A program made the translations under genes and the position numbers. Below are positions 9,762-17,610 of a stretch of DNA of 64,000 bases, piece after piece (within the stretch, counting starts at the first letter, position 1; each line of letters opens with the position of its first letter). Source of the DNA: Alphaproteobacteria bacterium. Its GTDB lineage: Bacteria; Pseudomonadota; Alphaproteobacteria; CALKHQ01. Below the pieces are notes generated by a model that did not search any database, was not told where the DNA came from, and worked only from the letters and a program-made list of their open reading frames with translations. The stretch is taken from the NCBI GenBank assembly GCA_965227515.1, contig CBDDFZ010000001.1, positions 288,001-352,000 on the forward strand. The letters run 5' to 3'.

Positions 9762-10523
9762 ATGCAGGGCAATACCGCACAGCACGACAACGGCACCGTC
9801 GACGCCAACGAGGCGGCCAAATTCGCCGCCATCGCCGCCGAATGGTGGGATCCGAACGGCAAGTTCCGGCCCTTGCACCGGTTCAACCCGACCCGGCTGG
9901 AGTTCATCCGCGCCCGGGCCTGCAATCATTTCGTCCGCGACCCGGCGCGGCTGGACGCACTGGCCGGGCTCAAGGTGCTCGACATCGGCTGCGGCGGCGG
10001 GCTGATCGCCGAGCCGATGGCGCGAATGGGCGCCGAGGTGACCGGCATCGACGTGACGGCGCGCAGCATCGCGGTCGCCCGCCACCATGCCGAGGCGCAG
10101 GGGGTCGACGTCACCTACCGCGAGGCGACGGCGGAGGCGCTGGCCGAGGAAGGGGCGCGCTTCGACCTGGTGCTGACGCTGGAAGTCGTCGAGCACGTGG
10201 CCGACGTGGACCTGTTCCTGCACGCCGCCGGCAGCCTGGTGGCACCGGGCGGCATGCTGATCGCCGCTACCCTGAACCGGACCAAGCGCGCCTTCGCCTT
10301 TGCCATCGTCGGCGCGGAATACGTGCTCGGCTGGCTGCCGCGCGGCACCCACGACTGGCGCAAGTTCGTGAAACCGTCGGAGATGGCGCGCGGGCTGCGC
10401 ACGGCAGGGCTGTCGCCCGTGGAGGTGACGGGCGTCGTCTACAACCCGCTGTCGGGCGAATGGCGCCTCAACCCGCGCGACGTGGCGGTCAACTACATGA
10501 TGGTCGCGACCCGCCCGGTGTGA
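9762..10523 (+). CDS. ubiG: Ubiquinone biosynthesis O-methyltransferase
   Basis: WWDPNGKFRPLH, LDIGCGGG, EVVEHV, GTHDWRKF. Divergent from lysC, as is usual. Confidence 0.96.
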   Translation: MQGNTAQHDNGTVDANEAAKFAAIAAEWWDPNGKFRPLHRFNPTRLEFIRARACNHFVRDPARLDALAGLKVLDIGCGGGLIAEPMARMGAEVTGIDVTARSIAVARHHAEAQGVDVTYREATAEALAEEGARFDLVLTLEVVEHVADVDLFLHAAGSLVAPGGMLIAATLNRTKRAFAFAIVGAEYVLGWLPRGTHDWRKFVKPSEMARGLRTAGLSPVEVTGVVYNPLSGEWRLNPRDVAVNYMMVATRPV

Positions 10524-10570
10524 TTTCGGCTGGCCGGCCCTGCTCGTCGGCACTAGACTGCGTTTGCCTA

Positions 10571-10719
10571 TCCAAGTGCGGCTAGGGTTCCGTCACAGCG
10601 GCGCAAGACCGTCGCTGTGGGCCTGGACCGAGCGCCGTTATGAGCCGACGTCTCCAAGAGCACCGCTTTGGCGACACCGCGGCAGACACCTTAAGGACCA
10701 AAAGGCCAGGGGGGTTGGA
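10571..10719 (+). promoter_or_regulatory. ykkC-fold riboswitch aptamer, subtype-2-like (not guanidine-I)
   Basis: AAGTG-CGGCTAGGGTTCCG-[hairpin]-CTGGACCGAGCGCCG-[P2]-ACACCTTAAGGACCAAAAGGCCAGGGG, flanked by TCCAA/TTGGA pairing. It lies in the 5' leader of a transporter gene. Confidence 0.85.
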
Positions 10720-10766
10720 CGGGCGCGCTGACGCGCGCCTGCAACCCAAAGCCCCTGAGGTGGCTC

Positions 10767-11624
10767 ATGTCTGTTCCTGGCCTGCTGCTCGTTCTTGCCG
10801 CCGCCATCTGCCACGCGACCTGGAATTTCCAGGTCAAGAGGATCGGCGGCGGACCCGAACTGGTCTGGCTGTTCTCGGTCATCAGCACGGTCGTCTATCT
10901 GCCGATCGCCGTCATCGTGGTCATCGTCGACGAACCGGCCTTCACCGGCTGGCAGTTGGCGTTCATTGCCGGCAGCGCATGCCTGCACATGGCCTATTTC
11001 CTGCTGCTGCAACAAGGTTACCGGCGGGGCGACCTGTCGCTGGTCTACCCCACGGCGCGCGCCACCGGCCCGCTGCTGTCGACAGCGTTCGCGGTGGTCG
11101 TGCTCAGCGAGACGCTGACCGTCCAGGCTGCCATCGGCGCGACAGTGGTCGTCGTCGGCGTGGTGTGCCTGAGCGGCGGACTGCGGCGCGGGGCCCGCAA
11201 GCTCGCGATCTCGCTCGGCTTCGGTGTTGCCATCGGCTGCCTGATCGCGACCTATACGGTTTGGGACGCCTATGCGGTCACCGCGCTGATGGTGCCGCCG
11301 CTGCTGATGGACTATGGGTCGGGCGCATTGCGCGCGGCGGCGCTGGCGCCCTGGGGCATTCGCCGCTGGGAACAGGTCAGGCGGCACTGGCGCGACCACC
11401 CGGTCGCCGTGCTCGCCATCGCGCTGTTCAACCCGCTGGCCTACATCCTGGTCCTGTATGCGCTGACCTTCACGCCCGTGGTCTACGTGGCGCCGACACG
11501 CGAGCTCAGCGTGGTGATCGCGGTCATCATGGGGTCTGTGCTGCTGGGCGAGGGCGACCTTCGCCGCCGCCTGCTGTGGGCGACCGTCATCCTGGCCGGC
11601 GTCAGCCTGCTGGCAACCGGATAG
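10767..11624 (+). CDS. EamA/DMT-family transporter
   Basis: About 10 hydrophobic segments in two repeats. HATWN and GDLSLVYPTAR..GP motifs, and YVAPTRELSV. Confidence 0.92.
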   Translation: MSVPGLLLVLAAAICHATWNFQVKRIGGGPELVWLFSVISTVVYLPIAVIVVIVDEPAFTGWQLAFIAGSACLHMAYFLLLQQGYRRGDLSLVYPTARATGPLLSTAFAVVVLSETLTVQAAIGATVVVVGVVCLSGGLRRGARKLAISLGFGVAIGCLIATYTVWDAYAVTALMVPPLLMDYGSGALRAAALAPWGIRRWEQVRRHWRDHPVAVLAIALFNPLAYILVLYALTFTPVVYVAPTRELSVVIAVIMGSVLLGEGDLRRRLLWATVILAGVSLLATG

Positions 11625-11747
11625 ATCGGGATCAGCTTACGCTGAATCTGCCCCAGCCCTCTCCCCCACCCGGCCACCCAGCAGGATACTCTCGTGGGTG
11701 GCCGGGTGGGGGAGAGGGTCGGTGCCGACTCAAATGATCATGCTCTA
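11622..11747 (+). mobile_element. Family-A MITE/REP-like element (~126 bp), copy 1
   Basis: Ends TAGATCGGGATCA...TGATCATGCTCTA. Internal ~25-bp stem CCCTCTCCCCCACCCGGCCACCCA/TGGGTGGCCGGGTGGGGGAGAGGG. Four more copies in the window. Confidence 0.9.
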
Positions 11748-11757
11748 GCGGAGGCCC

Positions 11758-12312
11758 TCAGGCCCAGAACCCGGCGGGCGCGCCGCGCCAGGGCGGGGCG
11801 AGGCCGTCGATGGCGGCCAGTCGCGGGCAGTCCTCGGCATGGGCGCCCGGCAGGTAGCCGATGCCGATCAGGAACGAGCCGGTGATCTCGCCGCCGGTGA
11901 ACTTGAAGGTCTTCTTGAACAGCTTGACCCAGTCCTCCTTGCGACGCGGGTGATGGGCGGCGAGCCAGGCGGCGAACCCGCCATGGCTGTCGCGCAGGCC
12001 CTGGACGACGCGCGCATTATGGATCGCCGCGTTCACCTTCAGCGCGTTGCGCACCACGCCGGGGTCGGCGAGCAGGCGCTCCCGGTCGGCCTCGTGGAAC
12101 GCCGCCACCTTGTCGACGTCGAACCCGGCATAGGCGGCCGCCAGGCTGGCACGCTTTTGCAGCACCAGGCCCCAGTTCAGCCCGGCCTGGGTGATTTCCA
12201 GCATCAGGCGCTCGAACAGCCTGGTCTCGTCGGTCTCGGGCACGCCGTACTCGGCGTCGTGATAGGGGCCGTGCAGCGGGTTGGCAGCGGCATAGGCGCA
12301 ATAGCCGGACAT
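11758..12312 (-). CDS. tag: DNA-3-methyladenine glycosylase I
   Basis: YHDAEYG, LFERLMLEITQAGLNW, VVRNALKVNAAIHNA, FKFTG, terminal H..DC. Confidence 0.92.
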   Translation of the reverse strand: MSGYCAYAAANPLHGPYHDAEYGVPETDETRLFERLMLEITQAGLNWGLVLQKRASLAAAYAGFDVDKVAAFHEADRERLLADPGVVRNALKVNAAIHNARVVQGLRDSHGGFAAWLAAHHPRRKEDWVKLFKKTFKFTGGEITGSFLIGIGYLPGAHAEDCPRLAAIDGLAPPWRGAPAGFWA

Positions 12313-17143: not shown

Positions 17144-17198
17144 CGACCGGGCGGCTCCCGTGAGTTTCTGCGGGCGCGCCGGCGGCCGCGCCAAATCA

Positions 17199-17476
17199 GT
17201 GGGGGGCTTCTGTTGCCCGGCGCCCCCCGAAACCGCGCTTACCTAAATTTAGGCAGCGAGTGCGATTTCGTTATCGTTCGCACCTAGGTTTTGGCCCGAT
17301 AACGGCGGTACCATGCCGGGCGAAAGCACTGTCTTTACACGCACGTCGATCCTGTTTCGCCCCCATGATGCGCCCTGGAAACCCGGGCGGATAATGGTGG
17401 AGGCGCCGGGTACTGCCCCCGGGTCCGCAACGCTTATTTCACAGACCGTTTATCGCCATAGCCGAGCAAGCCCGGC
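17199..17476 (-). ncRNA. ssrA: Two-piece (circularly permuted) tmRNA
   Basis: Minus strand: T-arm/acceptor 3' end ...CCCGGCGCCTCCACCA (ends 17395), a 30-nt intervening segment, then GGGGGCGAAACAGGATCGAC (starts 17364). Tag ORF ANDNEIALAA* at 17281-17249. TATAAT -10 at 17488-17483. Confidence 0.95.
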
Positions 17477-17610
17477 AGTAAGATTATAAAGGACGTTTTG
17501 CGGTGATTTAAAGGCCCGAGGGCGTTCGGCGGGCCGAAATGCGATTCGGCACGCCGGGACTCGCATTGCTATAGTCGCCACCCGTTCCGCCGCAAGATCA
17601 CGAGTCGCCC

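Follow-up and report, generated by a model that had tools for sequence, protein, structure and literature searches.

An alphaproteobacterial ykkC-fold leader with subtype-2 signatures, upstream of an EamA transporter gene, is a probable member of orphan subtype 2d

Introduction

What does the structured leader of an EamA/DMT transporter gene sense, and is it a kind of sensor that has escaped description? The question is raised by a 64,000-nucleotide stretch of DNA from an Alphaproteobacteria bacterium (GenBank assembly GCA_965227515.1, contig CBDDFZ010000001.1, positions 288,001 to 352,000 of the forward strand), hereafter the window, whose own numbering is used throughout. An initial annotation, made from the letters alone, described there a leader with the ykkC riboswitch fold, non-guanidine signatures and a P0-like helix, lying directly ahead of the transporter gene. 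It considered the ligand unknown, control translational and the pair a possibly uncharacterised module, and it proposed alignment to a covariance model and a search for covariation in homologous leaders as checks.

The ykkC fold includes guanidine-I RNAs (subtype 1) and subtypes 2a, 2b and 2c, the sensors of guanosine tetraphosphate (ppGpp), phosphoribosyl pyrophosphate (PRPP) and (deoxy)nucleoside diphosphates ((d)NDP). A further group, subtype 2d, is reportedly an orphan candidate, described by Nelson in 2017 and by Sherlock in 2018 and 2019. We present comparative evidence that the leader is a ykkC-fold RNA of the subtype-2 kind, and that it probably belongs to this orphan group and would switch on translation of the transporter.

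Results

A ykkC fold with a subtype-2 pocket

The leader carries the CUAGGGUUCCG motif and the GG.CCGAG.G core, and then P1, P1a/b, P2 and P3 in the order that defines the ykkC fold (Table 1). The core motifs, the 10-bp hairpin, P1, the enlarged P2 and the TCCAA/TTGGA pairing were all found where the initial annotation had placed them. Within CCGAGCG, the pocket position is occupied by C10633 and not by the adenine of guanidine-I RNAs. According to the available text of PMC8457001 and PMC6031431, every reported subtype-2 RNA has a pyrimidine in place of this adenine (A46 in S. acidophilus numbering, A55 in Burkholderia numbering), and the residue served to sort guanidine-I from subtype 2. In addition, the window has CACCU where the Rfam guanidine-I consensus has the CACGG (S-turn) segment, and the ACGG motif is absent. 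The pocket cytosine and the missing ACGG bear out the non-guanidine signatures of the annotation. Judged by these sequence features, the leader is a real riboswitch-like element with the ykkC fold and a subtype-2 signature.

At Rfam gathering thresholds, a search of the whole window reports only the alphaproteobacterial tmRNA. A permissive scan of 10480-10820 (341 nucleotides) aligns the leader with the full length of RF00442, Guanidine-I (model positions 1-107 of 107), at 30.5 bits (E = 7.5e-4), below the gathering score of 63 bits. The covariance-model check thus gave a complete, sub-threshold alignment. The low score is due in large part to the weak, mismatched P3 and to ~31 nucleotides in P2 that are extra to the model. 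Such a score is normal for non-guanidine ykkC variants: all eight subtype-2-like representatives tested likewise match only RF00442 and stay below its gathering score (41-60 bits), two of them lying immediately 3' of a purine aptamer. Rfam 15 offers such variants no models of their own, nor one for 2d.

Gene context points to subtype 2d

The protein encoded downstream matches Pfam EamA at 66.6 bits (cutoff 28.2) in two stretches, corresponding to two EamA repeats. Its best NCBIfam match is TIGR03340, phn_DUF6 (109.5 bits, profile positions 3-280 of 281), for which the equivalog cutoff of 288.15 bits is not reached. Both matches uphold the annotated EamA/DMT transporter.

This is the gene class expected for ykkC subtype 2d, which precedes transporters annotated EamA (originally phn_DUF6) and TauE and is given without a determined ligand in the available parts of PMC7266159 and PMC5912903. 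Both the window and its relatives have EamA/phn_DUF6 or TauE genes downstream. The accessible text of PMC5912903 describes 2d as closest to guanidine-I and notes extra 5' and 3' conservation for 2a-2c; in that of PMC6003355, the other subtype-2 RNAs examined bound neither guanidine nor ppGpp. Later papers, including PMC8457001 in the portion available, still class 2d as an orphan. We found no ligand assignment for it in the literature up to 2026, nor in the accessible text of PMC12186494 and PMC12873609. Like the annotation, PMC7266159, in the part available, leaves the ligand open; the annotation's possibly uncharacterised module did not hold up, the transporter-associated group that it mentioned being the published 2d. 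We think it likely that the leader belongs to this catalogued group, having set it against prose descriptions of 2d rather than against the 2d consensus. The P0-bearing form described below may be part of 2d or an unlisted variant, and the supplementary alignments of the Breaker-lab papers and Table S2 of PMC9881157 may already list this leader or its relatives.

Relatives of the leader precede the same class of genes

Relatives were collected by a pattern scan with the two core motifs plus the C signature, taking one genome per species. This gave at least 119 stretches, or 120 with the window, which were sorted by pattern, with 13 manual corrections; the class names alpha1, alpha2, beta and gamma are coined here. 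The counts of RNAs and downstream genes that follow are among the matches listed. The window and its alphaproteobacterial look-alikes make up alpha1 (8 RNAs). Alpha2 has 31 members, from Chloroflexota, Cyanobacteriota, Acidimicrobiia, Acidobacteriota and Burkholderiales, gamma has 12 (Paracoccus and other Pseudomonadota) and beta 22 (Actinomycetota); 43 RNAs are of Firmicute type with terminators, and 4 more are odd or decayed. A ninth alpha1 member, found separately (L141, G102:C25:81156-81274), has the core CCAAGCG instead of CCGAGCG. Exact-pattern scans miss such a core, so that the number of alpha-type RNAs is underestimated.

Of the 74 alpha, beta and gamma loci, 71 yielded a downstream open reading frame (ORF), the frame being chosen by a third-position GC (GC3) criterion. 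The largest group consists of 41 phn_DUF6-like EamA proteins (alpha1 8, alpha2 6, gamma 12, beta 15), followed by 20 from a second EamA clade, found with alpha2 only, 5 of TauE type, found with beta only, and 5 singletons. Pfam identified EamA in 12 of 20 downstream proteins and TauE in 4; the others gave MFS, TetR, nucleotidyltransferase and, for one protein, no match. For all eight representatives of the first clade, phn_DUF6 is the best NCBIfam match (97-131 bits). This distribution agrees with the published association of 2d.

Among 150 other genomes sampled evenly from the class, an alpha-type RNA occurs only in G102, the remaining matches being six canonical guanidine-I RNAs and one weak match. 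The three family relatives lack the transporter but retain the upstream aspartokinase-methyltransferase pair. The module is thus rare and patchy. Distant transporter homologues (17 loci from relatives in the class, 26-36% identity) were considered as further module members and rejected, none having a ykkC-like leader.

At L031 (5598-5781, minus strand) and L027 (4105-4295, minus strand), a ykkC-variant aptamer scoring 57-60 bits on RF00442 directly follows a purine aptamer (74 bits), an arrangement known from the literature as tandem guanine-PRPP. In beta loci (for example L024, L026, L045, L049 and L061), a TANNNT hexamer ends ~7 nucleotides before the first conserved aptamer nucleotides. If this hexamer is a -10 element, beta transcripts begin at the aptamer and a P0 helix is impossible.

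Covariation supports the helices, including P0

We aligned 37 alpha1 and alpha2 aptamers with MAFFT and scored the alignment against an explicit structure comprising P0, P1, P1a/b, P2, P3 and a P3 extension. Standard pairs fill 90.4% of the cells of this structure, compared with 78.7% in shuffled alignments (0 of 500 shuffles reach the observed value), and drop to 29-49% when the 3' partners are slid by 1-3 columns. Both sides change in 19 of the 31 pairs. P1 is paired in 100% of cells, with changes on both sides in 3 of 5 pairs, and P2 in 83.7%, with such changes in 2 pairs; in the P3 extension, columns 131/156 hold C-G in 32 sequences and U-A in the other 5. The homologous leaders thus provide the covariation that had been looked for, and the helices P0, P1, P1a/b, P2 and P3 are backed by compensatory changes.

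P0 is formed by the two ends of the element, and its extended form in the window (10566-10575/10715-10724) is paired at 9 of 10 positions. Its alignment columns contain 83.6% standard pairs against 71.9% after shuffling (0 of 500) and 22-55% when slid; the measure of both-side changes is not significant for P0 alone (161 of 500 shuffles). All five P0 pairs are present in 9 of 9 alpha1 leaders, whose sequences differ in compensating ways. A free-duplex test of P0 was significant for alpha2 (0 of 2000 permutations) and uninformative for alpha1 (871 of 2000) and gamma (590 of 2000). In such a test the G-rich tails pair with many partners, and we therefore used the column-wise counts. The P0-like helix of the initial annotation is real by this measure, covarying across the 37 relatives.

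Alignment columns 131-133/154-156 (window 10689-10691/10711-10713) pair the CACCU segment with the G-rich tail, also with covariation. This pairing conflicts with the long-range C-G pair that closes P3 in the Rfam Guanidine-I model, and the organisation of P3 in alpha variants may differ from that of guanidine-I.

A covariance model built from the 37 aptamers (the alpha model) gives the window 86.1 bits, a score that arises partly by construction since the window is in the seed; two alpha2 RNAs outside the seed score 105.6 and 84.7 bits. Gamma RNAs reach 61.6-80.1, beta RNAs 52.8-67.9 and Firmicute types 43.9-74.8 bits. The same genome also holds a canonical Guanidine-I RNA (G000:C1:127616-127764; locus L001 1501-1649) with CCGAGAG and ACGG, ahead of a 404-aa ORF that, read from its sequence alone, resembles an ABC-type periplasmic binding protein. 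This RNA has 33.1 bits on the alpha model and 73.9 on RF00442, where the window has 86.1 and 30.5. A canonical copy and a variant in one genome imply two distinct sensors in one cell.

RNA and transporter diverged together

For the phn_DUF6-like transporters, a tree was made from 37 of the 41 proteins, those shorter than 240 aa being dropped. It groups by RNA class: support is 100/99 for alpha1, 97/99 for gamma, 91/87 for alpha2 and 97/100 for 14 of the 15 beta rows, the remaining row, on a long branch, falling outside. Alpha1 and alpha2 are sisters (91/89). RNA and transporter have thus diverged together. That all four RNA forms go with a single transporter clade speaks for one common ligand or for related ones. 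Closely related alpha2 modules with transporters of one clade occur at L034 (Chloroflexota), L029, L056 and L086 (Cyanobacteriota), and L065 and L124 (Burkholderiales); this occurrence in distant phyla suggests that the RNA-transporter module has moved horizontally as a unit.

Operon partners gave no clue to the ligand. At 29 of 55 loci with a complete transporter ORF there is no credible close gene on the same strand downstream, and each Pfam family appears only once among the 26 candidate next genes.

A competing helix ends at the Shine-Dalgarno sequence

In the minimum-free-energy fold of 10707-10785, nucleotides 10707-10717 pair with 10742-10757 around the hairpin 10720-10741, at -34.5 kcal/mol compared with -24.3 kcal/mol without the outer pairing. 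The segment 10707-10717 takes in the last part of P3, the G-run and the first bases of the P0 3' strand, and the competing helix and the aptamer are mutually exclusive. The alternative pairing beside the Shine-Dalgarno sequence that had been proposed from the letters thus emerges as the most stable fold. An equivalent of the hairpin 10720-10741 lies immediately 3' of P0 in alpha1 and alpha2 relatives. The arrangement recurs more widely, in that the tail is predicted to pair downstream in all folded alpha1, alpha2 and gamma leaders, a count that lacks a shuffle control.

A scan of 10400-11800 found neither terminator-like nor sigma-70-like sites, which confirms the annotated lack of a terminator. 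With no terminator in the window, control would lie at translation initiation, which the helix abutting the Shine-Dalgarno sequence makes probable. In 4 of 28 alpha2 leaders (L034, L095, L115 and L128), a U-run directly follows the competing helix, which by prediction then makes an intrinsic terminator, with the 3' tail of the aptamer itself as the 5' arm. A ligand-stabilised aptamer would block such a terminator, which argues for ON logic. The available text of PMC6031431 gives guanidine-I, ppGpp and PRPP riboswitches as ON switches.

Organisation of the locus

The elements of the leader are collected in Table 1.

Table 1. Positions of leader elements and the transporter gene in the window
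Feature	Position	Strand	Basis or remark
ykkC-fold leader matched by RF00442	10564-10725	+	full-length model alignment
P0 5' strand	10566-10575, core TCCAA 10571-10575	+	model alignment, duplex prediction
P1 5' strand	10578-10582, partner 10634-10638	+	model alignment
CTAGGGTTCCG core motif	10582-10592	+	seen in sequence
Conserved ykkC core (CTAGGGTTCCG, P1a/P1b, CTGGACCGAGCG)	10582-10634	+	diagnostic pocket position C10633
P1a/P1b hairpin	10594-10619	+	10-bp stem 10594-10603/10610-10619, one G-U pair
CTGGACCGAGCG	10623-10634	+	seen in sequence
Enlarged P2	~10644-10683	+	pairs 10644-10647/10680-10683; model alignment
J2/3, atypical P3 and G-rich tail	10686-10714	+	
ACACC...GGCCAGGGG segment	10686-10712	+	seen in sequence
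P3 extension	10689-10691/10711-10713	+	alignment of relatives
P3	10695-10698/10704-10707	+	one A-G mismatch; alignment of relatives
P0 3' strand	10715-10724, core TTGGA 10715-10719	+	used also by competing helix; overlaps 5' arm of platform hairpin
Platform hairpin	10720-10741	+	9 bp, 4-nt loop; folding
C-rich competitor strand (CAACC ... CCCCTG)	10742-10757	+	pairs with 10707-10717 in minimum-free-energy fold
Shine-Dalgarno GAGG	10757-10760	+	first base is last base of competitor helix
ATG start codon	10767-10769	+	
EamA/DMT transporter gene, phn_DUF6-like	10767-11624	+	285 aa; Pfam, NCBIfam

Between the EamA stop codon and a convergent tag gene (methyladenine glycosylase) lies a perfect 23-bp inverted repeat (11657-11679/11697-11719) with a 17-nucleotide loop and no U-run, which might serve as a terminator in both directions or represent a repeat element. 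The tmRNA reported by Rfam is of the two-piece (permuted) alphaproteobacterial kind and lies at 17198-17515 on the minus strand (257.5 bits); it assigns the bacterium to the Alphaproteobacteria.

Discussion

Considered as a whole, the evidence favours a model, likely in our judgement, in which the leader is a ligand-sensing riboswitch of the 2d group that would act as an ON switch on the translation of a phn_DUF6-like exporter. The aptamer (~10566-10724), built from P0, P1, P1a/b, the enlarged P2, and P3 with its G-rich tail, would regulate the one EamA gene downstream. With no ligand, 10707-10717 would pair with 10742-10757, and the long helix so formed would stop right at the Shine-Dalgarno sequence. 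When ligand is bound, P3, its extension and P0 would retain the tail nucleotides, so that the helix shrinks to the short hairpin 10720-10741, the ribosome-binding region opens and the transporter can be synthesised. We assume that the transporter exports the ligand or a related compound.

Several results weigh against this model. The folding energy of the whole leader is no better than that of shuffled sequences (z = -0.85; 35 of 200 shuffles are equally or more stable), and the evidence for a ykkC RNA is therefore comparative, not thermodynamic. The promoter consensus scan of 10400-11800 was empty. Pairing of the tail with a downstream partner, predicted in 28 of 28 alpha2, 8 of 8 alpha1 and 12 of 12 gamma folded leaders, is a count that has no shuffle control. 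The computed accessibility of the Shine-Dalgarno sequence changes little between the folds, and not always in one direction: in the window it is 0.33 in the "free" and 0.45 in the "bound" fold, and in several other alpha1 leaders it is unchanged or reversed (the start codon of L092 being mis-set). Both states are also predicted to contain a local hairpin across the Shine-Dalgarno region. Finally, the prose on 2d describes a guanidine-I-like RNA, while the RNA in the window has a P0 helix.

This last point leads to the question of whether the variants share one specificity. The P0-bearing alpha class could form a specificity of its own, with a ligand, perhaps anionic or phosphorylated, that differs from that of the Actinomycetota beta class. 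Alpha RNAs combine a covarying P0 with a G-rich 3' tail, like Firmicute subtype-2 RNAs, including the tandem guanine-PRPP examples, and by analogy this likeness to ppGpp/PRPP architecture would fit a nucleotide-like or phosphorylated ligand. Beta RNAs have another J2/3 and 3' end, with no P0 seen, and we suspect that they are closest to the published 2d, which the available prose of PMC5912903 puts nearest to guanidine-I, reserving the extra 5' and 3' conservation for 2a-2c. The second EamA clade goes with alpha2 only and TauE with beta only among the matches listed. Against such a split, alpha1, alpha2, beta and gamma all precede one phn_DUF6-like clade, which suggests a shared or related ligand. 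Moreover, alpha2 variants with the U-A P3-extension pair grade into beta sequence, and beta RNAs score on the alpha model well over the 33.1 bits of canonical guanidine-I (52.8-67.9 bits). A separate alpha specificity is thus possible, if unlikely, and a private ligand for the alpha form seems doubtful. We would give rather little credence to the fuller proposal that the transporter-linked variants comprise more than one class, the P0 form sensing an anionic or phosphorylated metabolite exported by the phn_DUF6-like EamA protein and the P0-less Actinomycetota form something else.

The direction of control is a further point at which the evidence could be read otherwise. The 3' strand of the aptamer and the Shine-Dalgarno sequence are both G-rich, so that control of either sign must run via the C-rich strand. 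An OFF switch, or control of an importer, would result if the ligand freed this strand and it then helped to occlude the Shine-Dalgarno sequence, and the bound-state fold does contain a local hairpin of part of the C-rich strand with the Shine-Dalgarno region. However, that hairpin is predicted in both states, the relatives in which the 3' tail of the aptamer enters a terminator point to ON logic, and the characterised classes of the fold are reported as ON switches (PMC6031431, in the text available); we regard the OFF alternative as improbable. Two other readings strike us as most improbable. Guanidine-I is the sole Rfam match of the leader, as it would be for a diverged ordinary guanidine-I RNA with EamA exporting guanidine, but the pocket adenine is replaced by C and ACGG is missing. 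Furthermore, with 30.5 bits the leader falls short of the gathering score of 63, whereas the canonical copy in the same genome reaches 73.9 bits ahead of an ABC-type binding protein, and binding of guanidine or ppGpp is denied for the other subtype-2 RNAs examined in the accessible text of PMC6003355. A structured leader with no small-molecule ligand, such as a decayed relic or a protein-binding site, fits the unexceptional stability (z = -0.85), but conservation of sequence and structure reaches over several phyla and includes compensatory changes, the nucleotides of the core do not vary and the class of the downstream gene is constant.

The reading that we prefer, a 2d-group ON switch ahead of an exporter gene, gives the locus its interest. 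Within the ykkC family, whose other members brought to light guanidine metabolism and RNA sensors of ppGpp, PRPP and nucleoside diphosphates, subtype 2d is the one orphan left; knowing its ligand would at the same time give the substrate of a widespread and uncharacterised group of EamA/TauE transporters. What is new here is a further instance of an already catalogued orphan group and a convenient test case for the open question of its ligand. The locus is a clean test construct, and the canonical guanidine-I switch of the same alphaproteobacterium can serve as an internal control. To what was known it adds evidence that RNA and transporter diverge together, that some of the group have a P0 helix and, from comparison, that the logic is ON.

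Set beside known systems, the transporter resembles TIGR03340 (phn_DUF6) and Pfam EamA proteins in its two EamA repeats and full-length phn_DUF6 alignment; at 109.5 bits, below the equivalog cutoff of 288.15, it is a relative only, and there are no phosphonate genes nearby. With Guanidine-I (RF00442, subtype 1), the leader shares the P1, P1a/b, P2 and P3 architecture and the invariant CUAGGGUUCCG and GG.CCGAG.G core. It differs in having C at the pocket adenine, CACCU for CACGG, a P0 helix and an EamA gene downstream, where guanidine-I RNAs precede genes for a carboxylase, an SMR exporter or an ABC transporter.

Subtypes 2a, 2b and 2c resemble the window in the pocket C, the 5' AGUG-type junction, the ACACC segment, a P0 formed from the 5' and 3' ends, and a G-rich tail before the 3' strand of P0; in structural terms the leader has what distinguishes these subtypes, namely P0 and conserved nucleotides 5' of P1 and 3' of P3. 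Those RNAs are mainly Firmicute, with intrinsic terminators, and precede branched-chain amino-acid or glutamate genes, genes of purine biosynthesis or those of NUDIX/HAD hydrolases. In contrast, the window RNA is alphaproteobacterial, has no terminator, precedes an EamA transporter gene and differs in the sequences of its tail and P3. Compared with the prose description of subtype 2d, it is set apart by its covarying P0, the G-rich tail at its 3' end, the enlargement of P2 and the weakness of P3. With 2d it has in common the ykkC fold, a pyrimidine at the pocket adenine, orphan status, a position upstream of an EamA (phn_DUF6-like) gene, and TauE genes in its relatives.

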